A DNA stretch of 64,000 nucleotides from assembly GCA_003134375.1 (NCBI GenBank), contig PLAY01000065.1, positions 158 to 64,157 of the forward strand, read 5' to 3'. The translations under genes and the position numbers were made by a program. The notes under the pieces were generated by a model. It made no database searches and was not told where the DNA came from. It saw only the letters and a program-made list of their open reading frames with translations. How positions within the stretch are numbered: position 1 is the stretch's first letter; every line of letters starts with the position of its first letter. Of the stretch, positions 1 to 64,000 are shown piece after piece. The stretch is from Limisphaerales bacterium (GTDB lineage: Bacteria > Verrucomicrobiota > Verrucomicrobiia > Limisphaerales > UBA11358).

Positions 1-238
1 CAGAACCGGCCATGGCCTGATGCATGGTATCGGGGCAAAGGTCAACGCCACCAGGCCATTCAACGCAGCCGAAATCGGGATTGACGGTGACGGCGTTAAA
101 AATCCGCGGGTCGAGCAATTTCAGAAACACGCCGCCGCGCCGTTCGGGTTCAACGGGAAAAATCCCGCTCACGCCGTCGTTGAAGGTGACCTTCAACCGG
201 CAGTCCGGCAACGGTTCGGCGGAAACAATCCGATTCAT
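1..238 (-). CDS. DUF2442 family protein, partial (3' end lies beyond window start)
   Basis: Not in the ORF track because there is no stop in the window. Reverse-strand ATG at 238..236. My translation MNRIVSAEPLPDCRLKVTFNDGVSGIFPVEPERRGGVFLKLLDPRIFNAVTVNPDFGCVEWPGGVDLCPDTMHQ fits the DUF2442 pattern (V.F.DG ... WP.G.DL.PD). It lies about 10 nt downstream of its usual DUF4160 partner. Confidence 0.7.
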   Translation of the reverse strand, partial: MNRIVSAEPLPDCRLKVTFNDGVSGIFPVEPERRGGVFLKLLDPRIFNAVTVNPDFGCVEWPGGVDLCPDTMHQAMAGS

Positions 239-247
239 GTCTTTATT

Positions 248-508
248 CTACTCCAAAGGCGGGATTTTGGAAGGCTCTTGATTGCGGCTGGCCATGTCCC
301 ATGCCCGCCGCAGTTCCGTGCGATGCAACGCCGCCCATTCGAGCACCAGCGCCTGCGCGCGGCGGGTCATTTCGCCATCAATGACTTCAAGGGTGTTGAT
401 GTTCACCTTGATTTGCTCGCCTTGATAAACGGCATGAAAATGCGGCGGCGCATGGTCGCCATAAAACATGCGGATGATGATCCCGTAAAACCGGCTCAAT
501 TCAGGCAT
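248..508 (-). CDS. DUF4160 family protein
   Basis: 86-aa ORF. The N-terminus MPELSRFYGIIIRMFYGDHAPPHFHAVY carries the DUF4160 signature (FYGI.I.M...DH.PPHFH). Forms a two-gene cassette with the DUF2442 gene. Confidence 0.8.
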   Translation of the reverse strand: MPELSRFYGIIIRMFYGDHAPPHFHAVYQGEQIKVNINTLEVIDGEMTRRAQALVLEWAALHRTELRRAWDMASRNQEPSKIPPLE

Positions 509-622
509 GTCGGGAGATTATTTAATTTCAAATGGCAGGCAAGGTCTTTGCAAACGGCTGCCATCCGCCTGCGCCGCTCCGTCTTGACTTTTCGCATCCC
601 GCCTGCCATTGAAGGCTTCACC

Positions 623-1189
623 ATGAACCACAAGAAATCTTGCCTGCCAGGACTGCTGGCGTTACCAATACTGGCCATGCTGATGAATGCTCCCAACGTG
701 CCCGCCCAAGACAAACCGGCTGTTCCCGTACCCGACGCCGGCAAACCCCAGCCGGTTGCGACCAGCGAGAAATCCGCCCTTGGTTTCGCTGAACTGGCGG
801 ACAAGGCGCTGCTGGCCATGCAGCAACGCGCAGCAGAACTCAAGGCCACCGGCGTGGCCGTGGTCGCCTTCAGCGAAGGCGACAGTGTCAAATCCTGGTC
901 GTCGAAAATGGTGGTGGTGGGCAATCTGAAAACCGGCCCTTCCAAAAACGATCCCGCCGGAGCGAACCTGCTCGGCATTGCCTATGCCAAGGCCGCGGAA
1001 ATGGCGGACACGCTCAAAGCCAGCGGCAGCGCGGGCCGGCCGCCTTTGAAAGGCGAGTTCGGCTGGCAGGGCGGAGTGGTGGCCAAGGGACGAACTGGAA
1101 TTTTGATCGCGGCCTTCAGCGGCGGCCCTTCCGCGGACGACGTAAAAATTTCCCAGGCCGGCCTTGCGGTCCTGACCCAATCGTTGTAA
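623..1189 (+). CDS. secreted GlcG/HbpS-like (DUF336) protein
   Basis: ATG at 623 inside track ORF 20..1189. Signal peptide MNHKKSCLPGLLALPILAMLMNAPNVPAQ. The C-terminal ILIAAFSGGPSADDVKISQAGL resembles the GlcG/HbpS G.IGVSGG...D motif. The upstream part of the track ORF overlaps the DUF4160 gene and is not coding. Confidence 0.55.
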   Translation: MNHKKSCLPGLLALPILAMLMNAPNVPAQDKPAVPVPDAGKPQPVATSEKSALGFAELADKALLAMQQRAAELKATGVAVVAFSEGDSVKSWSSKMVVVGNLKTGPSKNDPAGANLLGIAYAKAAEMADTLKASGSAGRPPLKGEFGWQGGVVAKGRTGILIAAFSGGPSADDVKISQAGLAVLTQSL

Positions 1190-1200
1190 TCGCCCCGCGC

Positions 1201-1725: not shown

Positions 1726-1792
1726 ACCATCCGATTCCGACGCGACAAACACATTTTTCGCGGTTGTTTTCTTTCAACCTTGCATGCCTTCA

Positions 1793-1820
1793 ATTCGCGT
1801 AAATTCGTGAAATTCGTGTC
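1793..1820. repeat. solo arm of the CACGAAT/CACGGAT repeat family (inverted orientation)
   Basis: ATTCGCGTAAATTCGTGAAATTCGTGTC is the reverse complement of GACACGAAT-type units seen at 5811-5840. There is only one arm, so the call is weak. Confidence 0.3.
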
Positions 1821-1885
1821 AAAGTCTTTCCGCCTCCAAAATTGAATTGTCCCCTGCTCCATTTCGCGGCAAACTTCCTGTTCCT

Positions 1886-3253
1886 ATGCAGCAGGTAAAT
1901 CTTGGCATGATCGGCGGGGGCACCGTGGGCAGCGGCGTGTTTCACGCACTCCAGCTCAACGGCGGCCTCATGGCCTCGCGCATCGGCGTGAAAGTCGCCG
2001 TCCGCAAAGTCGCCGTAAAGGCGTTCAATGAACCGCGGCCGTATCAAATCCCGCGTTCGCTCATGACGCTGGACTGGCAAAGCGTCGTCAACGATCCGCA
2101 GGTGGACATTGTCACCGAACTGGTCGGCGGCACGGGCATCGCCCGGACGATGGTTCTCGCGGCGCTCAAGCTCGGCAAACCGGTCGTCACGGCCAACAAG
2201 GCCCTGCTGTCCGCGCACGGCGAGGAATTGTTTGCCGCGGCCAAGAAATACGGCACGAATCTTTATTACGAGGCGAGCGTTTGCGGTGGCATTCCCATCA
2301 TCAAATCGCTGCGCGAAGGCTTTGTCGGCAACCGCATCGAAGCGCTGTACGGCATCGTCAACGGCACCTGCAATTACATCCTCACGCGGATGAAGCTGGA
2401 AGGCGCGGACTTCGACGCCGTGCTCACCGACGCGCAGAAGCAGGGTTACGCGGAGACGCCGCCGGACCTGGACATTGACGGCCACGATGCTGCGCACAAG
2501 ATCGGCATTCTTGCCTCGCTGGCGCATGGCTTTTGGGTGAACCCGAAGAAAATCCATGTCGAAGGCATCCGCCATGTTTCCGCATTGGACATCAAATTTG
2601 CCGGCGAGCTGGGGTACACGATCAAGCTCCTTGGGATTATCAAACGAATTGACGATTTACGATTGACGATTGACGCGACCAAAAACAAACCGGCGCGTAA
2701 ATCGAATATCGTAAATCGTAAATGCAAAGTGCAGGTTTCGGTTTATCCGACGCTGGTGCCCAATGCGCATGTTCTCGCCAGTGTGAACCACGTCTTCAAC
2801 GCCGTGTTTGTGCGCGGCGACATCGTCGGCGACACGTTGTTTTATGGGCGTGGCGCGGGCAAGGACGCCACCGCCAGCGCGGTGCTCAGCGACCTGGCCG
2901 ACGCGGCGTTGGATTTGAAATCCGGATGCAAACAGCGCGTGCCGCCGTTTGTGCCGCACGAATGCGCCGGGGCGGTGATGCCGATCGAGGACGCCGTCTC
3001 GCAGTATTTTCTCCGGCTCAACGTCGTGGACCGTCCGGGCACGCTGGCGAAGATCGCCGCCATTTTCGGCGCGGCGAAGATCGGCATCTCGTCCGTCATC
3101 CAGCCGGAAGGCCATGAAGGCAAAAGTGTGCCGCTGATTTTCATGATGCATTACGCGACCAACGGCGCGGTCAACGGCGCATTGAAAAAAATCAGCCGCT
3201 TGCCGGTCATCAAAGGCAAACCGGTGATGATTCGCGTCGAGAATTTTGAATGA
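1886..3253 (+). CDS. hom: homoserine dehydrogenase
   Basis: Start moved to ATG 1886 (MQQVNLGMIGGGTVGSGV, a Rossmann motif). Conserved NKALL, YYEASVCGGIPII, NGTCNYILT, PTLVP..H.LASV...FNAV and a C-terminal ACT-like region. Carries a 23-codon repeat-derived insertion (see 2655-2723). Confidence 0.92.
   Translation: MQQVNLGMIGGGTVGSGVFHALQLNGGLMASRIGVKVAVRKVAVKAFNEPRPYQIPRSLMTLDWQSVVNDPQVDIVTELVGGTGIARTMVLAALKLGKPVVTANKALLSAHGEELFAAAKKYGTNLYYEASVCGGIPIIKSLREGFVGNRIEALYGIVNGTCNYILTRMKLEGADFDAVLTDAQKQGYAETPPDLDIDGHDAAHKIGILASLAHGFWVNPKKIHVEGIRHVSALDIKFAGELGYTIKLLGIIKRIDDLRLTIDATKNKPARKSNIVNRKCKVQVSVYPTLVPNAHVLASVNHVFNAVFVRGDIVGDTLFYGRGAGKDATASAVLSDLADAALDLKSGCKQRVPPFVPHECAGAVMPIEDAVSQYFLRLNVVDRPGTLAKIAAIFGAAKIGISSVIQPEGHEGKSVPLIFMMHYATNGAVNGALKKISRLPVIKGKPVMIRVENFE
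2655..2723. repeat. 69-bp imperfect hairpin repeat (ATTTACGAT / ATCGTAAAT family), in frame in hom
   Basis: Left arm ATTTACGATTGACGATTGACGCG, right arm CGCGTAAATCGAATATCGTAAATCGTAAAT. A sibling copy with the same ends lies at 10024-10097. Length is 69 bp, or 23 codons. Confidence 0.8.
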
Positions 3254-3305
3254 TGACAAATATCGGCGAATTGCCTTTTGAAGCAAATTCAGCCATCTTA
3301 AAGAC

Positions 3306-5803: not shown

Positions 5804-5806
5804 CTT

Positions 5807-6034
5807 TTAACCACGAATGAACACGAATAGACACGAATGGCAAAAGCCGGAGCCGGCGGAGCGCGGCTGTGTCCCGCAAAGCGGGATCAGCCGCAGCGCG
5901 TCCACTTGCAGAGAAGTCTCACGCAAGTTCCAACGCTTCAACCGCAGCGTGGCTGCTGCGACTGGTGCTATGCACACCGTCGCGCTCCGGCGGCGCATTT
6001 TATCCGTGTCCATCCGTGTTTATCCGTGGTTTAA
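5807..6034. repeat. TTAA-ended inverted-repeat element (CCACGRAT family), copy E1
   Basis: Left arm TTAACCACGAATGAACACGAATAGACACGAATGG. Right arm TATCCGTGTCCATCCGTGTTTATCCGTGGTTTAA. The arms are reverse complements apart from A/G transitions. About 160 bp of GC-rich core. Lies between the terminator and the leuA start. Confidence 0.75.
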
Positions 6035-7876: not shown

Positions 7877-8884
7877 TTGGCTATGAAATTACAGCGCATT
7901 TTTGTTTGCGGAGTCGCGGGCATCGTTCTTGCCGGCGGAAGACTTCTGGCAGCGGACGGCAACCCCACCAACGCGGCGGCGGCCACTGCGGCGGTTTATG
8001 TGCCGGACACCTCGCATCAAAACGACCCGTTGCCCGATGGCGTGCTGGCTTGGAACAGCCTGACGCAGGATGCCACGGTGGCGGCGGATGCCGGCAATGC
8101 CCATTTTGTTTTCAGCTTCACCAACATCGCAACGGTTCATGAAACCGCCTTGGTCACCAACGTCACGACCGTCACCAACATCACGGCGGTCACCAATTCG
8201 TTTTTTTTCTGGTTCAAAAAAATTTCCTCCGTCACCAACTTTTCCACGGCCACCAGCATCACGACGAACAACGTTACCAAGCCGGTTCCCGTGGCCTTTC
8301 TGGAGGTTCATCCCGGGTGTCAATGCACCACCACAGAGTTGCCGCCGTTGCCTTGGATCATTCCGGCCGGCACAAACGCGCAGTTTGGCGTCGCGGTCAA
8401 CCTGGCGGGAAGAACCGGAATGCAGGTCAAGACGGTCAATGTCAAGACCGACAAGGGTTTCAAACAACTCATCCTCAAAATCAACATTCTGCCGCCGGTG
8501 GTTCCAACCCAGTCCGATGCCGACCGCGCGCACGCCCTGGAAATGGCCAAAGCCGACCGGCAGACGGTTTTTCAAGGTGATTGCGCAACCTGCCACGTCA
8601 AACCCGGCACGGGCAAATACGGCAAGCCGCTTTCCGACGCCGTCTGTGCCATCTGTCACGAATCCAAAACGCGCGCCAGCATGGTGCCGGATTTGCACAA
8701 CATCAAAACCCCGACCAATGTGGATTTCTGGCAAACCTGGATTGCGCATGGCAAGGCCGGCTCCCTCATGCCCGCGTTTTCCACCGCCGATGGCGGTCCG
8801 CTCTCGGATATGCAAATCGCCTCCCTCGCCGGTTATCTGAACATGGCAATCCCATCGCAAACCGCGCCGCCGCCGGCCCAATGA
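7877..8884 (+). CDS. secreted DUF1573-like domain protein fused to a c-type cytochrome domain
   Basis: Signal peptide. FVFSFTN ... HPGCQCTT ... resembles the DUF1573 F.F.N...SCGCT core. The C-terminus has two CxxCH motifs (CATCH, CAICH) and SLMPAF. The DUF1573 core is interrupted by a ~60-aa VTN-rich segment. Confidence 0.6.
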   Translation: MAMKLQRIFVCGVAGIVLAGGRLLAADGNPTNAAAATAAVYVPDTSHQNDPLPDGVLAWNSLTQDATVAADAGNAHFVFSFTNIATVHETALVTNVTTVTNITAVTNSFFFWFKKISSVTNFSTATSITTNNVTKPVPVAFLEVHPGCQCTTTELPPLPWIIPAGTNAQFGVAVNLAGRTGMQVKTVNVKTDKGFKQLILKINILPPVVPTQSDADRAHALEMAKADRQTVFQGDCATCHVKPGTGKYGKPLSDAVCAICHESKTRASMVPDLHNIKTPTNVDFWQTWIAHGKAGSLMPAFSTADGGPLSDMQIASLAGYLNMAIPSQTAPPPAQ

Positions 8885-10012: not shown

Positions 10013-10023
10013 TGGTCGGATGA

Positions 10024-10097
10024 ATTTACGATTTGCGATTTACGATTGACGCGATTTTGGTGTTTGACTCGTAATTCGTATATCGTAAATCGTAAAT
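10024..10097. repeat. 74-bp hairpin repeat (ATTTACGAT / ATCGTAAAT family), intergenic copy
   Basis: ATTTACGATTTGCGATTTACGATTGACGCG ... CGTAATTCGTATATCGTAAATCGTAAAT. Same termini as the in-frame hom copy. Confidence 0.8.
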
Positions 10098-10098
10098 T

Positions 10099-10902
10099 AT
10101 GGAAAGGCTCGGCAAAAATCACGGCGGCTATCACGGCGAGGCGATTGACATCCGCGCCGTCCTGCGCGACATCGAAACCGCCGCGCAACAACACGGCTGG
10201 GCATTCGAGCCGTTTGGGAAGCAGGGCGAATTCAACCTGCCCGCCCTCCATCGGCCCTCAACCCTCAACTCCTTGGCGCGGCGAAACGAAGTGGAGACGG
10301 CTCAACCCTCAACCAGGATTTACCTAAGCACCGGCATTCATGGCGACGAACCGGCCGGGCCGCTCGCTGCGTTGCGCCTGCTCCAGGAAAACCAATGGCC
10401 GGCGAACGCCGAACTGTGGTTTTGCCCGTGCCTGAATCCGATGGGTTTCGTTTTGAACCGGCGAGAGAACGACCAGGGCATTGACCTCAACCGGCAATAC
10501 CGGCACCTGGAGGCGGCGGAGACGCGCACACACATTGCCTGGCTGGAGCGCCAGCCGCAGTTCGACCTCTGCCTCTGCCTGCACGAAGACTGGGAATCGC
10601 ACGGCTTTTACATTTACGAATTGAATCCGGAAAAGCGGCCATCGCTGGCCGAAAACATGATTGCGCGCATCGCAGAAGTCTGCCCGATTGACCCATCTGA
10701 AATCATCGAGGACCGCCCGGCGCGGAACGGCATCATCCGTCCGAACCTCGACCCTGCCACGCGACCGCAATGGGCTGAGGCATTTTACCTGATCGTGAAC
10801 AAGACAAGATTGTCCTACACCCTCGAAGCGCCGTCGGATTTTCCGTTGACCACCCGCGTCAACGCACTCGTCGCCGGCGTGAACGCCGCGCTGGCAACGT
10901 AG
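10099..10902 (+). CDS. M14 / succinylglutamate desuccinylase-aspartoacylase-like zinc hydrolase
   Basis: LSTGIHGDEPAGP (HxxE zinc motif) and a downstream LCLHEDWES. About 267 aa. Contains the repeat-derived segment STLNSLARRNEVETAQPST. Confidence 0.6.
   Translation: MERLGKNHGGYHGEAIDIRAVLRDIETAAQQHGWAFEPFGKQGEFNLPALHRPSTLNSLARRNEVETAQPSTRIYLSTGIHGDEPAGPLAALRLLQENQWPANAELWFCPCLNPMGFVLNRRENDQGIDLNRQYRHLEAAETRTHIAWLERQPQFDLCLCLHEDWESHGFYIYELNPEKRPSLAENMIARIAEVCPIDPSEIIEDRPARNGIIRPNLDPATRPQWAEAFYLIVNKTRLSYTLEAPSDFPLTTRVNALVAGVNAALAT
10257..10314 (+). repeat. CTCAACyCTCAAC-flanked ~58-bp element, in frame in the M14-like gene
   Basis: CTCAACCCTCAACTCCTTGGCGCGGCGAAACGAAGTGGAGACGGCTCAACCCTCAACC. 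About 50/58 nt match the copy at 26978-27035 (reverse strand). Confidence 0.7.
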
Positions 10903-11376: not shown

Positions 11377-11455
11377 GGTCAAAGTCCGTTTAACTTTATC
11401 CCATTTATCAATAGCGCGATACGGCAAATTCCGCCAGACGTTTCTTAGCTTTTTT

Positions 11456-11559
11456 CAACCACACATGAACACGGATGCGGTGGAGCGAATGTTTCTGTGT
11501 CGTGCATCGCATTCCGACTGCTCTCACTCCAATCCGTGTCTATCCGTGTCCATCCGTGG

Positions 11560-11563
<4 letters not shown>
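11456..11563. repeat. TTAA-ended inverted-repeat element (CCACGRAT family), short copy E2
   Basis: Left arm TCAACCACACATGAACACGGATG. Right arm AATCCGTGTCTATCCGTGTCCATCCGTGGTTAA. The terminal TTAA (11560-11563) contains the gcvP stop codon. Confidence 0.7.
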
Positions 11564-14667
<3,104 letters not shown>

Positions 14668-14916: not shown

Positions 14917-17538
<2,622 letters not shown>

Positions 17539-17560
17539 TTTTCGTTCTACAGGAATTTTT

Positions 17561-20227
17561 ATGGCTGAATCCAAACCATCGAATGATTTGCCGGTAATTA
17601 ACACGCCGCTGTTCGCCTCCGGAGAAAAAATTGCCAAGGTCAACGTCGCCGAGGAAATCAAGAACTCGTTTCTGGATTACTCGATGTCCGTGATCATTTC
17701 CCGCGCGCTGCCCGATGTGCGCGACGGCCTCAAACCTTCGCAACGCCGCATTCTTTTCGCCATGAATGAACTCGGCGTCATGCCGAACCGCAAGCACATC
17801 AAGTGCGCCAAAATCGTCGGCGAAACGATGGGCAATTACCATCCGCACGGCGACCAGGCGATTTACCCGACGCTCGTCCACATGGCGCAGCCGTGGGCCA
17901 TGCGCGAACGGCTGGTGGACGGCCAGGGCAACTTCGGTTCCGTCGAAGGTGATCCGCCGGCGTCCATGCGGTACACCGAGGCGCGGCTGGCGCATCTCGG
18001 CGCGGTGCTGATGGAGGACATGGACCAGGACACGGTGGATTTCGTTCCCAACTACGACGAGACCCGCACCGAGCCGACCGTTTTCCCCGCCGCCTTTCCC
18101 AATTTGCTCGTCAACGGCGGCACGGGCATCGCCGTCGGCATGGCCACGAACATGGCGCCGCACAATCTGGGCGAAATCATTGACGGCGTCTGCGCGCAGA
18201 TTGACGACCCGAACATCACGGTCAAGGGTTTGATGAAATTCATCAAAGGCCCGGACTTCCCGACCGGCTGCATGGTGTGCGGGCTGGAAGTCATCAAGGA
18301 ATACTTCACGACGGGCCGCGGCAGCATCAAGGTCCGCGGCAAGGTCGGCGTCGAACAGCTCAAGGGCGGCAAGGAACAAATCGTCATCACGGAAATTCCT
18401 TACAACGTCAACCGCGCGGTGCTCGTCGAGCGCGTCGCCGAATTGGTGAACGAAAAAACGCCGGGCTTCACCGACATCACGGCCATTCGCGATGAATCGG
18501 ATGAAAACACCCGCGTGGTCGTCGAACTCAAGCGCGACGCCATCGCCAAGGTCGTCATCAACAATCTTTACAAGCAGACCGCGCTGGAATCGAGCTTTGC
18601 CGTCAACATGCTGGCCATTGACCATGGCCGGCCCAAGACGCTCGGACTGAAGGAACTCATCAATTGCTACATCGAGCACCGCCGCGAGGTCGTGTTGCGC
18701 CGCACACGGTTCCAATTGAAGAAGGCCGAGGAACGCGCGGAAATTCTTGAAGGTTATCTCATCGCGCTGGCCAACCTCGACGATTTCATCAAAATCATCC
18801 GCGGCAGCAAGACCCGCGAGGAAGCCCGGGTCAAGCTGCTCGCCTTTGAGTGGACGCAAAAGCAGGTCGAGCGCTGGAGCATTTTGATTCGCAACGAGTC
18901 ACGCCTGACCAAGGGCCGTTACGCGCTGACCGAACGGCAGGTGGACGCCATTCTGGAATTGCGCCTGTATCAATTGACCGGTCTGGAAATTGACAAGGTC
19001 GAAGGCGAATACAAGGAACTGCTCAAGCGCATCGAGGATTTGATGGACATTCTCGCGAAGGAAGCCCGCGTGTTCACCATCATCAAGGCCGAGTTGAAGA
19101 CGATCAAAGAGAAATACGCCACCCCGCGCCTGACCGACCTCAAGCCCGACGAAGGCGAGATCAACATCGAAGACCTCATCGCCAACGAAGGCGTCATCAT
19201 CACGCTCACGCACAACGGCCTCCTCAAGCGCACGAACGTCAGTTCCTATCGCGCCCAGCGCCGCGGCGGCAAAGGCGTCATCGGCATGACGACAAAAGAG
19301 GGCGTGACGGATGAGGACAATGATTTCATCGAGCATTTGTTCACGGCCAGCACGCACGATTACCTCATGTTCTTCACGAACACCGGCCGCGTTTATGTCG
19401 AGCGGGTGCATGAAATTCCCGACATGGGCCGCGCCGCCAAGGGCCGGAGCATCGCCAATTTGCTCGAATTGAAGGCGGGCGAGACCATCGCCGCGCTCAT
19501 CCGCGTTCTTTCCAGGACCAATGCGAACAAGGAGGACATCACGTGGGAACAGCCCGGCGAACTGTTCTTTGCCACGAAACAGGGCACGGTGAAGAAAACT
19601 TCGCTCAACGAATTCACCAACGTGCGCAAAGGCGGCATCATCGCCATCACCATCGAACCGGGCGACACGTTGATTGACGTAAAACTTACTCGCGGGAGCA
19701 TTATTGAAAAAGATGAGGTTAAAGATCCCGGTGACGGCGTCGTGCTGATTACCCGGGATGGCATGAGCATCCATTTTAACGAATCGGATGTTCGTTCCAT
19801 GGGCCGGTCAGCCGCCGGCGTGCGTGGCATCAATTTGTCGAAAGGCGACGAGGTGGTCGCGCTGGCCATTGTCGTGCCGGACGCCAAACTGCTGGTCGCC
19901 GGTGAAAACGGCATCGGCAAACGCACCGACTTCGAGGAATACCGGGCTCAATCGCGCGGCGGCAAGGGCATCATTACCATGAAGACCAACGAGAAAACCG
20001 GTGCGGTCGTCGGCGCGCTGACCGTGCGCGACGCGGATGAAATCATGCTCATCACCGTCAAAGGCCAGATGGTGCGCACCTGCGTGAAGGATATTCGTGA
20101 AGCCGGACGCAACACCCAGGGCGTCAAACTCATTGAGTTGGATTCCGGCGACAAACTTCAAGCCATCGCGTCCGTCATTGGTGAGGACAAGGAAGATTCC
20201 GCCGCCGGAGACGAGCCGGCGAAATAA
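17561..20227 (+). CDS. gyrA: DNA gyrase subunit A
   Basis: DGLKPSQRRILFAM, GNYHPHGDQAIY, the active-site region MRYTEARL, and C-terminal beta-pinwheel repeats. Confidence 0.97.
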   Translation: MAESKPSNDLPVINTPLFASGEKIAKVNVAEEIKNSFLDYSMSVIISRALPDVRDGLKPSQRRILFAMNELGVMPNRKHIKCAKIVGETMGNYHPHGDQAIYPTLVHMAQPWAMRERLVDGQGNFGSVEGDPPASMRYTEARLAHLGAVLMEDMDQDTVDFVPNYDETRTEPTVFPAAFPNLLVNGGTGIAVGMATNMAPHNLGEIIDGVCAQIDDPNITVKGLMKFIKGPDFPTGCMVCGLEVIKEYFTTGRGSIKVRGKVGVEQLKGGKEQIVITEIPYNVNRAVLVERVAELVNEKTPGFTDITAIRDESDENTRVVVELKRDAIAKVVINNLYKQTALESSFAVNMLAIDHGRPKTLGLKELINCYIEHRREVVLRRTRFQLKKAEERAEILEGYLIALANLDDFIKIIRGSKTREEARVKLLAFEWTQKQVERWSILIRNESRLTKGRYALTERQVDAILELRLYQLTGLEIDKVEGEYKELLKRIEDLMDILAKEARVFTIIKAELKTIKEKYATPRLTDLKPDEGEINIEDLIANEGVIITLTHNGLLKRTNVSSYRAQRRGGKGVIGMTTKEGVTDEDNDFIEHLFTASTHDYLMFFTNTGRVYVERVHEIPDMGRAAKGRSIANLLELKAGETIAALIRVLSRTNANKEDITWEQPGELFFATKQGTVKKTSLNEFTNVRKGGIIAITIEPGDTLIDVKLTRGSIIEKDEVKDPGDGVVLITRDGMSIHFNESDVRSMGRSAAGVRGINLSKGDEVVALAIVVPDAKLLVAGENGIGKRTDFEEYRAQSRGGKGIITMKTNEKTGAVVGALTVRDADEIMLITVKGQMVRTCVKDIREAGRNTQGVKLIELDSGDKLQAIASVIGEDKEDSAAGDEPAK

Positions 20228-23209: not shown

Positions 23210-23312
23210 ATAGTGTAGAATTTACAACGCCGGCGGATTTTCAGCGAATCAATTTTGGCCGGATCCACCCGGAGGGCTGTCGGAGTTCAAGCTTCAGCCG
23301 CATTTATTCAAT

Positions 23313-23646
23313 TTAACCACGGATGGACACGGATAAACCCAACGCGGCCTTTGGCCGCAACCACAGATTTTGGACTGCGGCGGGAATCCCGCAGAGCGGG
23401 AGCCACGCCGCTTTTGGAAGCAACCGGTCGTACGGAAAGCGGTGTCGCCGCTGCGCTTCGCCTCGGCAAGCTGCCACCGCAGTCCAAATCTTTGTCATCC
23501 GTGCGCGAAGCTGCAGGATTGTATTACGGATTAAGACAAGGCAAAAGGTCCCTTTGGCGAACCCGGAAGGCCTTTCTTATTGGTGAATTCGTTTGCCTTG
23601 TCTTAATCCGTCCCGCATTGCGGGATCCGCGTCCATCCGTGGTTAA
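23313..23646. repeat. TTAA-ended inverted-repeat element (CCACGRAT family), composite copy E3 with nested 20-bp inverted repeat (IR)
   Basis: Ends TTAACCACGGATGGACACGGATAAAC / ATCCGCGTCCATCCGTGGTTAA. Nested perfect IR ACGGATTAAGACAAGGCAAA (23526-23545) / TTTGCCTTGTCTTAATCCGT (23592-23611). Confidence 0.75.
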
Positions 23647-28051: not shown

Positions 28052-28084
28052 TTAAACCACGAATCCACCCGGATAGACACGAAG
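28052..28084. repeat. solo arm of the CCACGRAT family (E4)
   Basis: TTAAACCACGAATCCACCCGGATAGACACGAAG. I found no partner arm nearby. Confidence 0.45.
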
Positions 28085-30319: not shown

Positions 30320-30530
30320 GGGCGCATCTCAATTTTTGAGCACCTCTCATTAGCACCCGGCTTCAGCCGGGTGAAACCAGTTATCACGAGAATAGAACCC
30401 GTTTCAACGGGTTTTTCCGCACACCAAAGCCGTTAAAACGGCTTTCGGACGTTTTTCGACCATCGTCACCGGGCTGAAGCCCGGTGCTAATGAGAATTTT
30501 CCGACGCCGGTCAAAAGTTGAGTTGCGTCC
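30320..30530. mobile_element. composite MITE: outer GGCGCATCTCAATTTTTGA inverted repeat enclosing a CTCATTAGCACC-type element
   Basis: Outer arms GGGCGCATCTCAATTTTTGAGC (30320-30341) / GTCAAAAGTTGAGTTGCGTCC (30510-30530). Inner arms at 30346-30373 and 30467-30494. Internal hairpins AACCCGTTTCAACGGGTT and GCCGTTAAAACGGC. Confidence 0.8.
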
Positions 30531-41712: not shown

Positions 41713-41957
41713 AGGGCGCATCTTAGTTTTTGAGCGGGGTGTCGCGCCATTGAAAGCCCCTGTGTTTACAGCCCTTTCATTAACACCCGGCTTTAGCTGG
41801 GTGTTTGCCGGTGTCGCGGGTCGGAACCGCTTGAGCGGTTTATCGGCACACGGGAAACCGCTCAAGCGGTTGGCGGGCCTTCCCTTCGCTGAACACCCCG
41901 GTAAAGCAGGGTGTTAATAAGATGCGGTTTCCAAGTGCATAAAAACTGAGATGCGCC
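41713..41957. mobile_element. composite MITE (same architecture as 30320-30530), diverged copy
   Basis: Outer arms GGGCGCATCTTAGTTTTTGAGC (41713-41734) / GCATAAAAACTGAGATGCGCC (41937-41957). Inner arms TTCATTAACACCCGGCTTTAGCTGGGTG (41776-41803) / CACCCCGGTAAAGCAGGGTGTTAATAAG (41894-41921). Internal hairpin AACCGCTTGAGCGGTT. Confidence 0.75.
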
Positions 41958-42024: not shown

Positions 42025-42534
42025 ATGAGACCGAAATTCATTTTTGCGCTGTTGCTGCTGGCGTTGCTGGTATTGGGTGCGGCTTTCCTTTTCAAACAAC
42101 ATTGGGAAAACGCCGCCCCGCCTCCTTCGGTCAATGAATCTGTGACTTCGGCTCCAGTGGTGAGTGCCGCCCCGCCATCCGCACCCGCCCCCGTTCCCGC
42201 CGCGCCAGTCTCCACCAATGTTCTGACACCCGAACAACGTCAAACCGCCATTGACGCCGAAACCGACCGCCTTCAGCAATGGTCCATGAATGACGATCCG
42301 GCATCGCTCTCAAATATCCTGGCCGACCTGACTAATCCTGAAAAAGAAATCCGGGACGCAGCCATCGAGGCCGCCAAGCAGTTCGGCAGCACCAACGCCA
42401 TCCCCACCTTGAAAGCCGTGGCCGCGAACACGACTGATACCGAGGAACAGATCGCCCTGCTCGAAGCCGCCAATTTTCTTTCGCTGCCCCCGGTTGACTT
42501 CAGCCAGCCGACCTCACCCAAAACCCGGCAGTAA
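42025..42534 (+). CDS. membrane-anchored Pro/Ala-rich + HEAT-like repeat protein (module gene B1)
   Basis: ATG 42025 gives MRPKFIFALLLLALLVLGAAFLF (a TM anchor), then a PA-rich spacer, then EKEIRDAAIEAAKQFGSTNAIPTLK (HEAT/PBS-lyase-like). The C-terminal ~95 aa are about 80 percent identical to B2. Confidence 0.7.
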   Translation: MRPKFIFALLLLALLVLGAAFLFKQHWENAAPPPSVNESVTSAPVVSAAPPSAPAPVPAAPVSTNVLTPEQRQTAIDAETDRLQQWSMNDDPASLSNILADLTNPEKEIRDAAIEAAKQFGSTNAIPTLKAVAANTTDTEEQIALLEAANFLSLPPVDFSQPTSPKTRQ

Positions 42535-43599: not shown

Positions 43600-44196
43600 A
43601 TGAGGCTTAAAATCGTCAGCTTGATCCTGCTGGCCGGCTTGGCTGGCGTAACTGGTATTCTTTTGATAAAACATCAGGGGGCACCTCCTCCGGCGGCGGC
43701 TCCAATCGCCATTATTGAAACCAAACCCGCCGCACCCCAAACTGCTCCCCCCATCACGAATGTCCCGCCACCCGCAACGGCGCCCGTCGCCGCTGCGCCG
43801 GTTGCCACCAACGCCCTGACGCCCGAACAGCGCCAGGCGGCCATTGACGCCGAGACCGACCGCCTCCAGCAATGGTCCATGAACGACGATCCGGCCTCCC
43901 TGTCCAGCATCCTGGCCGACCTGACCAACTCCGAAAAAGAGGTTCGGAAAGCCGCCATTGAAGCTGCCGAACAGTTCGGCAGCACCAATGCAATCCCTGT
44001 TTTGAAAAACCTGGCGGCCAACGATGAAGACCCCGAAGAAAAAGCCGCCCTGCTTGAAGCCGCCAATTTTCTTTCGCTGCCCAGCATCTTCGATGTCGGC
44101 CAGCCAGCCACTCCAGCCGAAAGGGAGGCCCACAGGCAGGCTCAAATGCAAAAGCATTCACAAAACCAAAATTCACCAGTTGCGCCCAATAATTGA
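43600..44196 (+). CDS. membrane-anchored Pro/Ala-rich + HEAT-like repeat protein (module gene B2)
   Basis: MRLKIVSLILLAGLAGVTGILLI anchor (alternative ATG at 43585), PA-rich spacer, and a conserved LTPEQRQAAIDAETDRLQQWSMNDDPASLS...FGSTNAIPVLK block. Paralog of B1. Confidence 0.7.
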   Translation: MRLKIVSLILLAGLAGVTGILLIKHQGAPPPAAAPIAIIETKPAAPQTAPPITNVPPPATAPVAAAPVATNALTPEQRQAAIDAETDRLQQWSMNDDPASLSSILADLTNSEKEVRKAAIEAAEQFGSTNAIPVLKNLAANDEDPEEKAALLEAANFLSLPSIFDVGQPATPAEREAHRQAQMQKHSQNQNSPVAPNN

Positions 44197-52353: not shown

Positions 52354-54857
52354 GGTTGGTTTTTCCTATCTATGGTGGTTTCCTTGTTATCGTCCTGCGC
52401 TTTTTTGGGGTGAGCCACCGGAATCGTCAAGATAAAAGTGGAGCCTTGCCCTGGTTTGCTTTTGGCGGTGATGTCGCCGCCGTGATATAATGCAATTTTG
52501 CGAACAATGGCCAACCCCATGCCGGTGCCTTCGTATTCATTGCGAGTGTGCAACCGCTGGAAGACATTGAATATTCGATCCAGATATTTTTCGTCAAAGC
52601 CTATGCAATTGTCACTGACCGTCAACCGGCAAAGTTTCTTCGCGGGCGTGAGGGAATCGGGGATGATCTGCGCTTCGACTTTCACCACCGGCGGCTCTTC
52701 CGGGCGGCGGAATTTAAGCGCGTTGCCAATCAGGTTTTGCAACAACTGGCGCATTTGCAGCGACTCCGCGTCAATGACCGGTAGCGCTCCCAGTTCGACG
52801 CGCCCTTTGACCAGTTCGATCCGTCCCTCCAAATCTTCCAGCACTCCGCTGGCCACTTCCGCCAGATTGACCGACGTGAAAGGCTGGGCCTTGGTCGTAA
52901 CCCGCGAAAAAGTCAACAGATCGTTGATCAGAATCTGCATCCGCGCGGCCGCTTTCTGCATCCGATCCAGATAATCAAGCGCTTCCGGCCCCAAGGCTTC
53001 ACTGTTCTTTTCCCTGAGCCGTTCGCCGAAAACCACGATTTTTCGCAAGGGTTCCTGCAAGTCGTGCGAAGCCACATAGGCAAAATCCTGCAGCTCACGA
53101 TTGCTGCGCTCCAGTTGCACGGTGAACTGGCGCAACTTTTCCTCGCTGCTGCGCAGATCGTCTTCCGCCTGCTTGCGTTCCGTGATGTCCCGGCCGATAC
53201 CCACCAGCCCGACAATCTTTCCGCCTTGATCGCGCAGCGGCAGCTTGCTGGTCAACAGCCAGTGTTTCTCGCCCTTGTCGTTCAAGACATACTCTTCCCG
53301 GTTGATGACCGGTTCGCCCTGAATCACCTTTTGGTCGGCGGCCCAGAATTTTTCGGCGAGTTCCTGTGGGAATAGATCGAAATCCGTTTTGCCGATGGCC
53401 TCGGCTTCGCTGTCGCAATGGAGATTTTTCAGGTCCGCCGGATTAGCCAGGATTTTCCGGCCGGCGGCGTCCTTGGCATAGATGCAATCCGGCAGGTTGT
53501 CAATCAGCGTCCGCAGGAGGGAGCGTTCCCGGGCCAGCGCCTCTTCCGCCACCTTGTCCTTGGTGATGTCCCGGCCGATGCCCACCAAACCGATGATTTT
53601 CCCGTTCTGATCGCGCAGCGGCAGCTTGCTGGTCATCAGCCAGTGTTTGCGGCTCTGTTCGTCGAATAAAAACTCCTCCCGGTTGAGCACCGGCTGGCCT
53701 TTCAGCACCAATTGGTCATCCGCCCAGAATTTTTCGGCAATGTCCGGCGGAAAGAGATCAAAATCGCTCTTGCCGATGGCCTCGGACTCGAACTTGCAGC
53801 GGAGATTTTTCAGGTCGGCGGGGTTGGCCATCGTCTTTCGACCGGCGGTGTCCTTGGCGTAGATGCAATCCGGCAGGTTGTCAATGAGTGTCCGCAACAG
53901 CAGGCGTTCCCGTGCCAGTGACTCTTCGGCCTGCTTGCGCTCGGTGATATCGAACTGGATTCCCTGGGTGCCAATAATCTTTCCATCCGAATCAAGCATT
54001 GGCAATTTTACAACGTGCAGGAACTGCTTCGTACCATCGGCTTTCACATACTCTTCATCCATCTCAATGGGCTTGCCGGTTTGCATGATTCGTTCATGAT
54101 GTTCCACGCCGACGGCGGCATACGTGTTTGCCGGCCCGGTTGCGCCCGGTTTCGCCGCTTCGATGGCGGCGACTTCCAGGGGTGTTTTGCCCAAAAACTC
54201 CTCCGCCTTCATGCCTTTGATCCGGCAGAACTCGGAATTGACCAGAACAAAGCGGCCTTCCCGGTCTTTGCGAAAAATTCCCATGGGCAGTTGCTCCAGC
54301 AGCGAGTGACTAAGCGCCTGCGATTCCCGCAATGCCTCCACCGTTTGTTTCATTTCCGTAATGTCCCGGTTGATGCCCATCAAACCCACGACTGTTCCTT
54401 GCTTGTCCCGCAGCGGGACCTTGGTGGTTTGCACCCAGCGCTTCTCGCTGGTGCCCGGAATCATCACGGTTTCCTCCCGGTTCAGCGGCTGGCCTGATTT
54501 CATCAGCGCCTGTTCGTCCTCATAATACTGGTTGGCCGCTTCCGCCGGGAAAATATCGCGGTCGCTTTTGCCCATCACCTCGTCCGGACGGGTTGCGCCC
54601 AGTGTCCGCACGTGCGCCAGATTGCTGATCAAAAACCGGCTCTGCCGGTCTTTGACGAAAATGTTATCGGGCAGGCCGTCAATGAGCGTCCGCAGCAAAT
54701 CCCGCTCTTGCACCAATTTTGCGTTTTCCCGCGCCAGTTGCGCGTTGAGTCCCGTGCCTCTTGAACTTTCCAAGCTGCCCGTCGAATGCCCGTTCTTTGA
54801 CGAAGGGGCAACTTCGTTTGACGGCAATTTAGCTTGATGATTGCTTGTTGTATTCAT
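52350..54857 (-). CDS. multi-PAS sensor histidine kinase
   Basis: Four PAS modules, H-box FAYVASHDLQEPLRKI, and HATPase (GIGFDEKY...GTGMGLAIV). The first gene of a three-gene two-component operon. Confidence 0.88.
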   Translation of the reverse strand: MNTTSNHQAKLPSNEVAPSSKNGHSTGSLESSRGTGLNAQLARENAKLVQERDLLRTLIDGLPDNIFVKDRQSRFLISNLAHVRTLGATRPDEVMGKSDRDIFPAEAANQYYEDEQALMKSGQPLNREETVMIPGTSEKRWVQTTKVPLRDKQGTVVGLMGINRDITEMKQTVEALRESQALSHSLLEQLPMGIFRKDREGRFVLVNSEFCRIKGMKAEEFLGKTPLEVAAIEAAKPGATGPANTYAAVGVEHHERIMQTGKPIEMDEEYVKADGTKQFLHVVKLPMLDSDGKIIGTQGIQFDITERKQAEESLARERLLLRTLIDNLPDCIYAKDTAGRKTMANPADLKNLRCKFESEAIGKSDFDLFPPDIAEKFWADDQLVLKGQPVLNREEFLFDEQSRKHWLMTSKLPLRDQNGKIIGLVGIGRDITKDKVAEEALARERSLLRTLIDNLPDCIYAKDAAGRKILANPADLKNLHCDSEAEAIGKTDFDLFPQELAEKFWAADQKVIQGEPVINREEYVLNDKGEKHWLLTSKLPLRDQGGKIVGLVGIGRDITERKQAEDDLRSSEEKLRQFTVQLERSNRELQDFAYVASHDLQEPLRKIVVFGERLREKNSEALGPEALDYLDRMQKAAARMQILINDLLTFSRVTTKAQPFTSVNLAEVASGVLEDLEGRIELVKGRVELGALPVIDAESLQMRQLLQNLIGNALKFRRPEEPPVVKVEAQIIPDSLTPAKKLCRLTVSDNCIGFDEKYLDRIFNVFQRLHTRNEYEGTGMGLAIVRKIALYHGGDITAKSKPGQGSTFILTIPVAHPKKAQDDNKETTIDRKNQP
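53184..53945 (-). repeat. tandem 381-bp intragenic duplication (two PAS modules)
   Basis: Units start GATGTCCCGGCCGATACCCACC (53184) and GATGTCCCGGCCGATGCCCACC (53565). Peptides RERLLLRTLIDNLPDCIYAKD... and RERSLLRTLIDNLPDCIYAKD... are near-identical. Confidence 0.8.
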
Positions 54858-60959: not shown

Positions 60960-61168
60960 CCGTGATTCCGGGCTTAGGATAACGAAGCGACAAAAAGAAG
61001 CCAGCCTGCGATTTAGATACGCAAAAGTTTCTGTCCTGCTTTGGAACAGGATGTCTCATTCAATAAAAAACTTGAAATGCATGATGAAATCGGGCTGGCG
61101 CAGCGCCGGCAAAATTGAGTTTTTTCACGTCTAAAAATCTGGCGCGCAAGGTGCTATGCATAATAGCG

Positions 61169-61489
61169 ATGTCATCCTTGGAAAATATCTACAAAAAAAT
61201 GGCAGAGGCGGCGGCTGGCGCGGATGCCCTGCACGAAACCACCCAGAATTCGACACAGTACGTCTCTCCCGCGGTCGCGCACGAACTAAACAATATCATT
61301 GCAATTATTCGAGGCTACGCCGACCGTTTGCTGTTCAAGCACGGTGAAAATCCCGCGCTCGAACCGCACCTCAAGCTCATCTCCGAAGCGGCCAAACGTG
61401 CGGCAATCATCGTTCACGATGCCCTGCCGCCAAATTCAAGCCCGGCCGTCCGGCAAAATCCGCCGTCGTCGCAACAGCCCACCTCGTAA
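61169..61489 (+). CDS. small stand-alone HisKA (DHp)-like protein without ATPase domain
   Basis: H-box-like VAHELNNIIAIIRGYADRL with a second helix ISEAAKRAAIIVHDAL. The ORF ends after a Pro/Ser tail. The start is uncertain (ATG 61169 or 61199; the track TTG at 61115 is unlikely). Confidence 0.5.
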   Translation: MSSLENIYKKMAEAAAGADALHETTQNSTQYVSPAVAHELNNIIAIIRGYADRLLFKHGENPALEPHLKLISEAAKRAAIIVHDALPPNSSPAVRQNPPSSQQPTS

Positions 61490-61592
61490 CCGCGGCTTCT
61501 TCCTGACCTGAAATATCGCGATTCGTTTTGACGCTTTGCGTTCCATCGCGTAGCGTTTTGTTTCTATTTTCAACTGACTATTTGGGTTTACT

Positions 61593-64000
61593 GTGAATTT
61601 TTTGAAATGGATTTTCGGGTCGAAGAATGATCGCGAAGTGAAAAAACTTTGGCCGCTCGTTCATCGCATCAACGAGGCCGAGGCCGGACTTCAAAAGCTT
61701 TCTGACGACGAGTTGCGCCAGAAAACCGCCGATTGGAAGGCGCGACTCTCGCAAATTCAGGACAAAACGGAGTTGGCCAAGGCGCTCAATGAGATCCTGC
61801 CCGAAGCGTTCGCTGTCGTCAAAAACGCCTGCCGCCGTCTCACCGAACGCAAGACGGAAATCATCGTGCGCGAGCATCCATTGCTCTGGGAGATGATTCC
61901 GTTCGATGTGCAGCTCATCGGCGGCTACGCCCTGCACAGCGGGCGCATCGCCGAAATGGCCACCGGCGAAGGCAAAACGCTCGTCGCCACCCTGCCCATT
62001 TATCTCAACGCGCTCACCGGGCGCGGCGTCCATCTCGTGACGGTCAACGATTACCTCGCCGCGCGCGACTCCGAGTGGATGGGTGCGATTTACAAATTTC
62101 TTGGCCTGACCGTCGGCTGCATTTTGCACGACCAGCCGCCACGCGTCCGTCGCGAGCAGTACAATTGTGACATCACCTACGGCACGAACGCCGAGTTCGG
62201 TTTTGATTATCTCCGCGACAACGGCATGGCGGCGCGCAAAGAAGAACAGGTCCAGCGCGGCCATTACTTCGCCATCGTGGACGAGGTGGACTCCATCCTG
62301 ATTGATGAAGCCCGCACACCGCTCATCATCAGCGGCCCGTCCGTTCATACTTACGACGAGCAATACGCCCAGTGGAAGCCGCTGGTCGAATCGCTCGTCC
62401 GGGCACAGGAACGTTTGTGCGCCCGGTTTTTGTCCGAAGCCGAGGCGCTGATTAAAAAGCTGAATCCGACCGATGGTTCAAACCCTCAAAATCCCGAAGC
62501 CCTCGAACATGAAATCGGTCTGCTCTTGTTCCGCGTCAAAACCGGCCAGCCCAAATCCGAAGGCCTGATGAAACTTCTGGAAGACCCGGAAAACCTCAAG
62601 TTGATGAACCGGGCCGAACTGGATTTGCACAAGGACCAAAAGAAAGTTGACCTGTACCGGGAGAAGGAGGAATTGCTTTTTGCCATTGATGAGAAAGGTT
62701 TCGAGGCTGATTTGACCGAAAAAGGCCGCAATTTTGTCAGCCCGAAAGACCCGGAGGCTTTTGTGCTGCCCGAACTCACAACGGCGCTGCATGAAATTGA
62801 CACCGGGCCGGAACCCGACGCGCGCAAGCGCATGGAAGCGAAGACGAAGGTCCAGCAGGATTTCGAGACCAAGGCGCAAAAGATTCACGCCATCTCGCAA
62901 TTGCTCAAGGCTTACAGCCTTTACCAGCTCGACGTGGAATATGTCATTCAGGAGAACAAGGTCATCATCGTTGACCAGCATACCGGCCGTCTCATGCCCG
63001 GTCGCCGCTGGAGCGACGGCTTGCACCAGGCCGTCGAAGCCAAGGAAGGCGTCGAGATCGAGCACGAAACGCAGACGCTCGCCACAATCACGATTCAAAA
63101 TTATTTCCGTCTCTACAAAAAGCTGGCCGGCATGACCGGCACGGCGGAAACGGAGGCGTCCGAATTTTTCGACATTTACAAACTCGGCGTTCTTGTCATC
63201 CCGACGAACGAACCCTGCATCCGCAAAGACGCCAACGATGCGGTCTATAAAACCAGGCGCGAAAAATTCAACACCGTCCTCAATGAGATCAAGCAGACCC
63301 ACGCCCAAGGCCGGCCCATCCTCGTCGGCACGGTTTCCGTTGAAGTCAGCGAGCAGCTTTCACGCATGCTCAAGCGCGAAGGCATCATTCATTCCGTTCT
63401 CAACGCGAAATATCACCAGCAGGAGGCCGAAATCATCACGCGCGCCGGCCAGCGTGGCGCGGTGACCATTGCCACCAACATGGCCGGTCGTGGCACGGAC
63501 ATCAAACTCGGCCCCGGCGTCGCCGAACTCGGCGGCCTGCACGTGCTGGCCACCGAACGCCACGAAGCGCGCCGCATTGACCGCCAGTTGCGCGGACGCT
63601 GCGCGCGCCAGGGCGACCCCGGTTCATCGCACTTTTTCATCTCGCTCGAAGACGATTTGATGCGGCTGTTCGGCTCCGATCGCATTGTAAAAATGATGGA
63701 GCGCATGGGCTTGGAAGAGGGCCAGGAATTGACCCACCCGTGGCTGAACCGTTCCATTCAGCAGGCGCAAAAGCGCGTCGAGCAGCACAATTTCCAAATC
63801 CGCAAACGTACGCTCGAATTCGACGACGTGATGAACAAACAGCGCGAGGTCATTTACGGCTTCCGCAACGAAATCATCCATGGTGAGGATGTGCGCGACC
63901 GGCTCATGGACATCATGGAGGAGGTCGTCGTGGACAAGGTCGCGCAATTCACGAACGCCGAATCCGAGTTCAGCGAATGGAAAACGCGGCCATTGGCCGA
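61593..64000 (+). CDS. secA: preprotein translocase ATPase SecA, partial (3' end beyond window)
   Basis: Not in the ORF track because there is no stop in the window. GTG 61593 gives [63 protein letters not shown] and [13 protein letters not shown] are all in frame. Confidence 0.95.

Follow-up and report, generated by a model that had tools for sequence, protein, structure and literature searches.

Short repeat elements in frame within conserved enzyme genes of a peat-soil Limisphaerales bacterium, and their turnover at fixed sites

The window and its host genes

Five genes in a 64-kb stretch of DNA from an uncultured peat-soil bacterium of the Limisphaerales (Verrucomicrobiota) carry short repeat elements within their reading frames, and in three of these genes the same positions hold a variety of elements among close relatives. 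The stretch, hereafter referred to as the window, is part of a metagenome contig and has a G+C content of 51-59% along its length, mostly about 57%; coordinates given without a contig name refer to it. The nearest named relatives are metagenome-assembled genomes (MAGs) labelled Limisphaerales, Verrucomicrobiia or Verrucomicrobiota, two 'SPRUCE' peatland MAGs among them. Related loci and contigs are cited below by L numbers and related proteins by P numbers. Pfam profiles back the identities of all five host genes, which had been named in an earlier interpretation made from the letters of the DNA (the sequence-only reading):

1886-3253, plus strand: hom, homoserine dehydrogenase (Homoserine_dh)
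10099-10902, plus strand: AstE/AspA/M14-like hydrolase (AstE_AspA/M14-like)
11560-14667, minus strand: gcvP, glycine cleavage P-protein (GDC-P)
26517-27491 (called gene), minus strand: GT9 glycosyltransferase (Glyco_transf_9)
28843-30261, minus strand: miaB (UPF0004/Radical_SAM/TRAM)

Elements of the window

A total of 14 elements were identified in the window, seven in genes and seven between genes, belonging to the families designated A to F. Genes occupy about 90% of one 23-kb part of the window, so that the density of elements is roughly nine times higher in the intergenic DNA, though half of the copies are coding. Each repeat was folded as single-stranded DNA and compared with 200 shuffles; the z-scores below refer to this comparison, and REP denotes a repetitive extragenic palindromic sequence.

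2648-2723, plus strand: family A hairpin in hom, encoding about IDDLRLTIDATKNKPARKSNIVNRK; z = -6.5
10023-10098, unstranded: family A hairpin, intergenic, just upstream of the AstE/M14-like gene; z = -5.4
10255-10314, plus strand: family E in the AstE/M14-like gene, encoding PSTLNSLARRNEVETAQPST; z = +1.7
12193-12244, minus strand: family C2 REP doublet at gcvP site 3; z = -6.0
13092-13240, minus strand: family B MITE (miniature transposable element with inverted repeats) within the inter-domain linker of gcvP (site 2); z = -10.2
13453-13530, minus strand: family C REP doublet (REPIN-like) at gcvP site 1, GTAGGACGGGCTTCCAGCCTGTCTC ... GAGACAGGCGCGACGCCTGTCCTAC; z = -5.7
26978-27035, minus strand: family E copy in the GT9 gene, encoding LNSQLLGAAKRSKDGSTLNQ, 88% identical to 10257-10314
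29537-29612, minus strand: family D hairpin in miaB; z = -3.8
30345-30495, unstranded: family B copy, intergenic, in the divergent region upstream of miaB; z = -10.2
41774-41922, unstranded: family B copy, intergenic, more diverged; z = -8.9
5806-6032, unstranded: family F composite, intergenic, with inverted tandem-decamer ends CACGAATGAA / ATCCGTGTCC
11454-11562, 23312-23645 and 28052-28083: further family F copies, intergenic

The sequence-only reading had described six in-frame inserts. All six were recovered where it had placed them, in uninterrupted open reading frames (ORFs), and a seventh, the doublet at 12193-12244 in gcvP, had been missed. It had also credited four families with a second copy in the window, a number reduced here to three (A, B and E), families C and D being single. 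Its comparison with palindromic elements suits families A, B, C, C2 and D, for which z ranges from -3.8 to -10.2 and none of the 200 shuffles folds as well, and does not extend to family E, which is not palindromic (z = +1.7 and +1.9 for its two copies). Lengths in multiples of three, reported for three of the inserts, depend on where the ends are drawn: measured from arm to arm they are 76 (A), 149 (B), 78 (C), 52 (C2), 76 (D) and 58 nt (E). A multiple of three as an intrinsic property of the elements was therefore rejected, the window lengths of 52-149 nt being mixed and the B copies, of 115-185 nt, falling into all three residue classes. It is the net gain relative to the empty allele that must be a multiple of three, because the reading frame is kept. 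The repeats lie far outside what chance similarity would give. Scans of the window with Rfam and for tRNAs gave no matches; the repeats belong to no described RNA family.

Evidence for insertion

Homologous residues were sought at the same positions in distant phyla and in solved structures, and both the outgroup orthologues and the solved homologues lack the segments. At gcvP site 1 there is a clean gap of 20 residues in PDB entries 4LGL (Synechocystis) and 6I33 (human), and site 2 lies between the two aligned halves of this comparison. The insert of hom comprises 25 residues against two in 3MTJ and that of miaB 30 against six in 7MJV; PDB alignments of the GT9 and M14-like proteins start after the insert or miss it, so that these two could not be placed. 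In outgroup gcvP (by GTDB, Cyanobacteria, Vicinamibacteria of the Acidobacteria, Planctomycetes, Opitutae and Chthoniobacterales) site 1 has 18-19 residues and sites 2 and 3 about 22-28, as against 39, 75 and 39 at sites 1, 2 and 3 in the window.

For gcvP, hom and miaB, closer comparisons drew on the 120 nearest relatives of each in the database, which are 76-100% identical. Empty alleles occur in relatives that are 88-91% identical: site 3 of gcvP has 25 residues in the empty relatives against 39 in the window, and the family A element adds 21 residues to hom relative to the empty allele P0174. Judged by these alignments, the segments are true insertions and not ancestral sequence. The gcvP protein, insert included, is recorded exactly in 78 assembly blocks (JGI sample 3300014491 and several ENA/JGI assemblies) and the miaB protein, also with its insert, in 100 assembly blocks from several JGI and ENA samples, which argues against an assembly artefact.

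An apparent 3.7-kb match to gcvP in L025 was considered as a large insertion and rejected, as it consists of a normal gene and a duplicated 3' fragment; the duplicate (L025:13605-13721) corresponds to residues 993-1031 and is found, at 77% identity, downstream of the intact copy.

Turnover at fixed sites

Among 116 full-length gcvP relatives, sites 1, 2 and 3 show 11, 10 and 12 insert states, the empty state included, in 58 distinct three-site combinations. Fitch parsimony on a neighbour-joining tree of the rest of the protein requires 34, 44 and 52 changes at the three sites, against homoplasy-free minima of 10, 9 and 11. The excess reflects repeated gain, loss and replacement or else recombination between lineages, two sources which are not separable in these counts. 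In hom there is a single variable site, with about ten insert types besides an empty allele (LLGIIKKIGGGCRVQV), and the single site of miaB has about ten insert types, with no empty allele in its closest 120 relatives. Peptide motifs such as KSEIRNPKSEI, HASRITHHASR, SPVTRHPSP, VEGRGSRVEG, G..NLKVELQ and GAQGTARPT are common to different genes, from which it follows that the families are dispersed.

The same variety is seen in the DNA. At gcvP site 1, L005 is empty, L007 has a single REP (GQAGSPSY), the window a REP doublet and L006 an unrelated doublet. Site 2 is occupied by (CACGCAT)x2 in L006, by (CACGCAT)x5 in L007 and by the 150-bp family B element in the window and L005, while site 3 is empty in both L005 and L007.

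In Nostoc-type cyanobacteria, gcvP site 3 also holds in-frame heptamer hairpins, which are particular to these organisms and unrelated to the present ones (L031 from Chlorogloeopsis, L033, L034, L039, L045 and L056). The Chlorogloeopsis insert consists of (GGGACTG)x4, a spacer and (CCCAATC..)x4 and encodes GDWGLGTRKEEVPNPQSLIPS. At site 1, P0097 has an in-frame insert of 63 residues with a match to ribbon-helix-helix proteins of the CopG family (RHH_1, 24.7 bits, cut-off 20.5); either this enzyme contains a complete small domain or the assembly is chimeric.

Family B and an associated IS200-like transposase

Family B elements are about 150 bp long and have 30-nt terminal inverted repeats (TIRs), which are 100% complementary in the gcvP copy. 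Each terminus contains the hairpin CACCGGGC-TTCA-GCCCGGTG, and the internal part varies and carries small hairpins. The family was surveyed by one scan of metagenome contigs with the B terminus (at least 120 loci), which yielded, among the loci listed, at least 81 paired elements at at least 78 distinct sites. No target-site duplication is visible in 81 flank pairs, and apart from a weak CC/GG sequence continuing the terminal repeats, the surroundings of the copies gave no target consensus. Family B thus has the sub-terminal hairpins, the non-coding interior and the lack of target-site duplication by which MITEs derived from IS200/IS605 are recognised.

In four contigs, B termini in inverted orientation about 600 nt apart enclose a gene of 150 amino acids that matches PF01797 (Y1_Tnp, E = 3e-24). 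A complete terminal repeat, the Y1 transposase gene and an inverted terminal repeat were located at:

L150:412-1031
L145:5298-5906
L132:961-1568
L186:99-779

Partial transposase-bearing B elements are present in two more contigs, L118 and L130. The NCBIfam profile transpos_IS200 scores 62 and 54 bits (cut-off 55) and REP_Tyr_transpos 23.8 and 27.5 bits (cut-off 80), which keeps the enzyme outside the clade of tyrosine transposases associated with REPs (RAYTs). A nuoI-like orthologue, 84-100% identical over 87 amino acids, adjoins four of the six Y1 copies (L145, L132, L130 and L150), which suggests a fixed, vertically inherited position. Since the same termini surround the Y1 gene, family B derives, as a miniature and non-autonomous form, from a Y1 transposase element flanked by TIRs, and its copies would have been moved in trans on single-stranded DNA.

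Hosts of family B with a Pfam match include gcvP, a GH63-like hydrolase, a polyketide/fatty-acid synthase and a DUF3999 protein. A search with the B-encoded peptide among protein representatives at 50% identity returned only nine short proteins, such representatives hiding the insert-bearing members. The GH63-like glycoside hydrolase (about 1018 amino acids; L139:545-3598, with an orthologue in L180) carries both a B element and a C-type REP doublet (GQASSLSGQERNSESAGNGKHERQAGSLSH), each in frame.

Reading frames and stop codons

A six-frame tabulation of stop codons separates the families. The gcvP copy of B is open in one of six frames and two intergenic B copies in none, with stops in all, whereas family D is stop-free in all six frames and family E in all three frames of one strand. 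It follows that only the heptamer families are stop-free, D and E being so because of their heptamer composition.

For the metagenome sample of 78 B sites, a copy was counted as genic where a stop-free frame runs across the element and for 40 codons or more to either side of it. By this definition 13 of the 70 decidable sites lie in long open frames. In all 13 genic copies the frame at the exit from the element is TGLKPGANE and that at the entry LISTGLQPG or SLAPGFSPV; TAG, TGA or TAA is present in the remaining frames of the terminal repeats. An end-to-end length of one modulo three is found in none of the 13 genic copies against 15 of 57 non-genic ones, and of 65 non-genic copies 28 are closed in every frame. 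With genic copies in the sole open frames and stops in many non-genic copies, this pattern is the signature of a selective filter acting after insertion at tolerant loops, and not of stop-free design. Of the two options offered by the sequence-only reading, tolerance at a few loops, together with a frame and stop filter, is favoured over elements selected to be stop-free, freedom from stops being confined to the heptamer families and due to their composition. Because of these frame and stop constraints the inserts are probably translated.

REP doublets and heptamer families

Families C and C2 form one class with a GTAGG head and a GC-rich hairpin. The units of C are GTAGG with ACGGGCT/AGCCTGT and GTAGG with ACAGGCG/CGCCTGT; those of C2 are GTAGG with GACGCCGC/GCGGCGTC and GTAGG with GTCGTCGC/GCGACGAC, inverted and without a spacer. 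Both have the GC-rich stem-loop, the GTAG tag and the inverted dimers of the published definition of GTAG REPs. Each occurs once in the window, with a few further sites in 721 kb of related metagenome DNA, and a scan of the pattern GTAGG-N17-CC gave matches at chance level.

The arms of family A are four tandem ATTKACG heptamers in inverted orientation. Tandem Repeats Finder reports a period of 7 with 4.0 copies on each arm of the hom hairpin, and with 3.9-4.3 copies per arm in families A and D. Like short tandemly repeated repetitive sequences (STRRs), these are dispersed head-to-tail 7-nt units in few copies, with further sites in the metagenome loci. The intergenic A copy (10023-10098) is kept at the orthologous position in L012, L079, L014 and L011. 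Family D has arms of tandem GGTCGAG heptamers, a pattern with six matches against 0.45 expected from shuffles; its unit CTCGACC on the other strand differs by one base from the E unit CTCAACC.

Family E consists of (CTCAACC)2, a core of about 30 nt and (CTCAACC)2 in direct orientation. Its two copies are 88% identical over 58 nt (E = 3e-12), and the same element strand is translated in both, in different frames. Relatives show five states at the E site of the M14-like gene: a bare (TCAACTC)x4 array (L014), an array with the core, an array with an enlarged core, a core-like sequence alone and a short GC-rich loop. From these states, heptamer arrays appear to change by slippage and also to take in other sequences.

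Other small palindromes lie between the decamer ends of family F. The copy at 11454-11562 borders on the stop codon of gcvP, and that at 5806-6032 is 91% identical to a copy at the orthologous place in L006.

Origin and persistence of the inserts

We consider it probable, with good confidence, that several families of short non-autonomous repeats insert, that their genic copies are kept by a filter at tolerant loops, and that the sites are reused. The dispersal of the repeats, their insertion, the association of Y1 with family B, the frame and stop filter on genic B copies and the reuse of sites are shown by the results above. The genome holds several such families, of which B would be mobilised in trans by an IS200-like Y1 (HUH) tyrosine transposase acting on single-stranded DNA without target-site duplication; the heptamer inserts of A, D and E may change length by slippage, and other elements may insert into them. 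Copies would land everywhere and most genic landings would be lost, persistence in a gene requiring a net length in frame, a stop-free frame, and a loop or linker that tolerates 10-55 extra residues, all three together. Since few sites would tolerate inserts, the same positions would be used repeatedly, and each tolerant position would behave as a hypervariable cassette within a clade, holding different families or nothing. The inserts would presumably be located at the protein surface.

Several observations weigh against this account. No transposase gene was called anywhere in the window, the link between family B and Y1 comes from related metagenome contigs and not from this genome, and families A, C, C2, D and E were linked to no transposase (flanking sequence was not tested for C and C2). 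Open frames scored as genic may be spurious in DNA of 57% G+C, only four of the 13 hosts have a Pfam match, and the case for translation is drawn entirely from frame and stop constraints. AlphaFold2 models of hom and gcvP, built from shallow alignments of close relatives, have a mean predicted local distance difference test (pLDDT) score of 53 and 41 and are too poor to judge the surface exposure of the inserts; in the gcvP model, residues 383-404 (the site 1 insert) have a pLDDT below 50 within a confident stretch (blocks of 73-82). Homologous recombination between lineages, or poor resolution of the tree, might account for most of the parsimony excess. Filled alleles, moreover, mostly replace ancestral loop residues and do not merely interrupt them, contrary to what a single clean insertion predicts; this replacement points to each site having undergone several events in turn.

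The hotspots might also result from targeting and not from tolerance alone, if resident hairpins and heptamer arrays attract insertions and a colonised site keeps swapping elements, a possibility which we regard as real and on balance doubtful. REPs attract insertion sequence (IS) elements, being documented as their targets (PMC3184786), and Y1 transposases recognise hairpins on single-stranded DNA. Nested arrangements also appear to be common: the E core lies inside a CTCAACC array in two genes, with an insert within the core in L012 and a bare array in L014; at gcvP site 2 of P0011 a hairpin-like peptide interrupts the CACGCAT array; the ends of family F have other palindromes between them; and the C2 allele at gcvP site 3 retains the 'NFK' start of the heptamer allele NFKSQISNLKSHS. 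However, B copies show no target consensus beyond the weak CC/GG extension, and the presence of unrelated cyanobacterial repeats at the same gcvP loop is explicable by tolerance alone. The cyanobacterial hairpins at site 3 and the ribbon-helix-helix insert at site 1 together indicate that site tolerance is the main cause of site reuse, with targeting of existing repeats as a secondary factor that may contribute. It is rather unlikely that the heptamer inserts (A, D, E and the CACGCAT type) were made locally by slippage, hairpin-templated repair or point mutation with homogenisation, and not transposed. Such an origin would suit the step from two CACGCAT units in L006 to five in L007 at gcvP site 2 (three units, 21 nt, frame-keeping), the single base between the D and E units, and the number of about four units per arm, as in the heptamer arrays of Xanthomonas and Nostoc (PMC4692102). 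Yet the same arms occur at unrelated loci (A in hom and in intergenic DNA, E with its 30-nt core in two genes at 88% identity), peptide motifs recur across gcvP, hom and miaB of relatives, and slippage is unable to yield identical 58-nt units in two genes.

Two further explanations would remove the inserts from consideration as translated insertions. That the inserts are untranslated is highly improbable: in yeast mitochondria palindromic 'byp' inserts are reportedly skipped by ribosomal bypassing or removed from the mRNA, and the present inserts form strong hairpins as bypassed elements do, but every genic copy in the three genes, each with about 120 relatives, is in frame and stop-free, and genic B copies are limited to the open terminus frames and avoid one length class modulo three, non-genic copies often being stopped throughout. 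A skipped sequence would face no such constraint. An origin of the segments as ancestral variable loops or assembly artefacts is even harder to credit and can be given almost no probability. While length variation at gcvP site 3 and in the linker (site 2) is also seen in other phyla, the segments are absent from outgroups and solved structures, are copies of dispersed families with intergenic members, and have empty counterparts in the close relatives already described; as artefacts they would not recur as exact proteins in many assemblies from several samples.

Insertion followed by a filter at tolerant loops thus remains the preferred explanation. A more far-reaching possibility, which we think unlikely, is that a colonised loop becomes a self-perpetuating cassette locus, its hairpins and heptamer arrays serving as landing pads for further elements handled by Y1 or related machinery acting on single-stranded DNA. 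If this were true, hom, gcvP and miaB would each have fixed codons at which the population carries alternative peptide cassettes, dozens of them in all, and the hairpins with heptamer arms would be a distinct, undescribed class of mobile element sharing its architecture with cyanobacterial heptamer repeats.

Relation to known repeat systems

The Rickettsia palindromic elements (RPEs; Ogata et al. 2000) lie, in the accounts of them given in two later papers, in frame within genes as well as between genes (PMC3733652, PMC3184786). As far as those accounts go, the likeness consists in short, dispersed, palindromic repeats of several families, located between genes and in frame in genes that are probably still functional, where they add a few tens of residues. 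The precedent, put forward in the sequence-only reading, thus holds in kind, for dispersed repeats in frame inside conserved genes. A palindrome both in frame in a conserved gene and between genes is found in families A and B; family E lacks the palindrome. The hosts differ, a free-living peat or soil verrucomicrobium here and an obligate intracellular alphaproteobacterium there, and of the families in the window one is linked with a Y1 transposase, several are built of heptamers and one is non-palindromic. In addition, the same codon-level sites hold many alternative elements among close relatives, while a literature search for site reuse by RPEs found nothing relevant. The relation is best regarded as an analogy, and sequence kinship would not be expected.

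The same reading had stated that no equivalent description was known for this kind of genome, a view that does not survive a comparison with the literature. Di Nocera, De Gregorio and Rocco (2013) reported intragenic GTAG/CGTC REPs in several species, the intragenic GTAG type being most numerous in Opitutus terrae (PMC3733652). These REPs insert 20-30 residues, hit some genes twice and form dimers with spacers of 1-2 bp, and different REPs occur at about the same place in recB of Xanthomonas (PMC3733652). Families C and C2 are likewise dimers of GTAG-headed stem-loops inside verrucomicrobial genes (PMC3733652), although the Limisphaerales are not Opitutae and the REP sequences differ. Heptamer-arm hairpins, an in-frame 150-bp TIR element and population-scale turnover in hom, gcvP and miaB are absent from that study. 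The in-frame fusion of repeat elements with protein genes was reviewed in 2011 (PMC3184786).

With its inverted hairpin termini and many non-autonomous copies, family B resembles the REPIN-RAYT and TIRYT systems (Bertels and Rainey 2011, PMC3116915; Di Nocera 2013, PMC3733652), TIRYT being the name given by Di Nocera et al. to the TIR-flanked Y1 arrangement (PMC3733652). As in TIRYTs, the B termini bracket a small Y1 gene, which in four contigs lies beside nuoI, as expected of a vertically inherited single-copy gene. Unlike a RAYT, the B transposase is IS200-like and scores far under the cut-off for REP-associated tyrosine transposases, and the B terminus has the head TTAG and not the GTAG of REPINs. 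REPINs are extragenic by definition, whereas the copies described here are probably translated parts of enzymes.

Tandem heptamers of cyanobacteria, with small dispersed repeats inserted into them, are said to have been described by Mazel in 1990 and Elhai in 2008. The elements of the window are similar in their arrays of about four units, in inverted arms forming hairpins and in small cores within arrays, as in family E, and differ in phylum and in unit sequences. Heptamer arrays of Xanthomonas and Nostoc also prefer four units, and G-rich heptamers are under-represented in their coding regions (PMC4692102). Coding palindromes in the mitochondria of Nematomorpha are likewise inverted repeats within protein genes with both arms translated (PMC6649704); they belong to animal mitochondria, are much longer and perfect, and have no known link to a transposase family (PMC6649704).

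The present case therefore extends a phenomenon known from Rickettsia and another verrucomicrobium. What looks new is the turnover of multiple families at fixed codon-level hotspots and the presence of heptamer-arm hairpins in coding DNA. In the literature consulted, no description was found of genes that hold in-frame elements from several unrelated families, among them heptamer-arm hairpins and an IS200-derived MITE, of turnover among close relatives in which over ten alternative cassettes occupy fixed codons, or of convergent use of one P-protein loop in two phyla.

Taken together, the inserts constitute a saturation experiment performed by nature, which maps where essential enzymes put up with 10-55 additional residues: three loops of the P-protein, one of hom and one of MiaB each accept over ten peptides unrelated to one another. 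Miniature elements of the REPIN type or derived from IS200 are usually deemed extragenic, and their persistence in coding DNA reveals the filter that they pass. For a lineage that is abundant in peat and soil, the cassettes provide sharp markers at strain level, and they account for many of the odd stretches of low complexity and the spurious small ORFs in annotations of Verrucomicrobiota.

Other observations

In the DUF1573-like gene (7877-8884), the segment at 8135-8284 adds about 50 residues rich in V, T and N relative to three relatives. It was considered as a hairpin element and rejected (z = -1.1), showing instead a tandem periodicity of 9/18 nt. A PIN / PhdYeFM toxin-antitoxin pair lies between gyrB and gyrA in L005 (3925-4635) and L006 (2657-3435), unlike the window, where the two genes are adjacent (about 17538-17561); a ParE-like toxin gene is found in the window beside the aspartate kinase gene. 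A multi-PAS sensor gene contains an internal tandem duplication of 381 nt (53154-53834, 76-78% identity), and a pair of 300-nt direct repeats (42171-42470 and 43764-44063, 77% identity) lies 1.6 kb apart; both look like ordinary domain or gene duplications.

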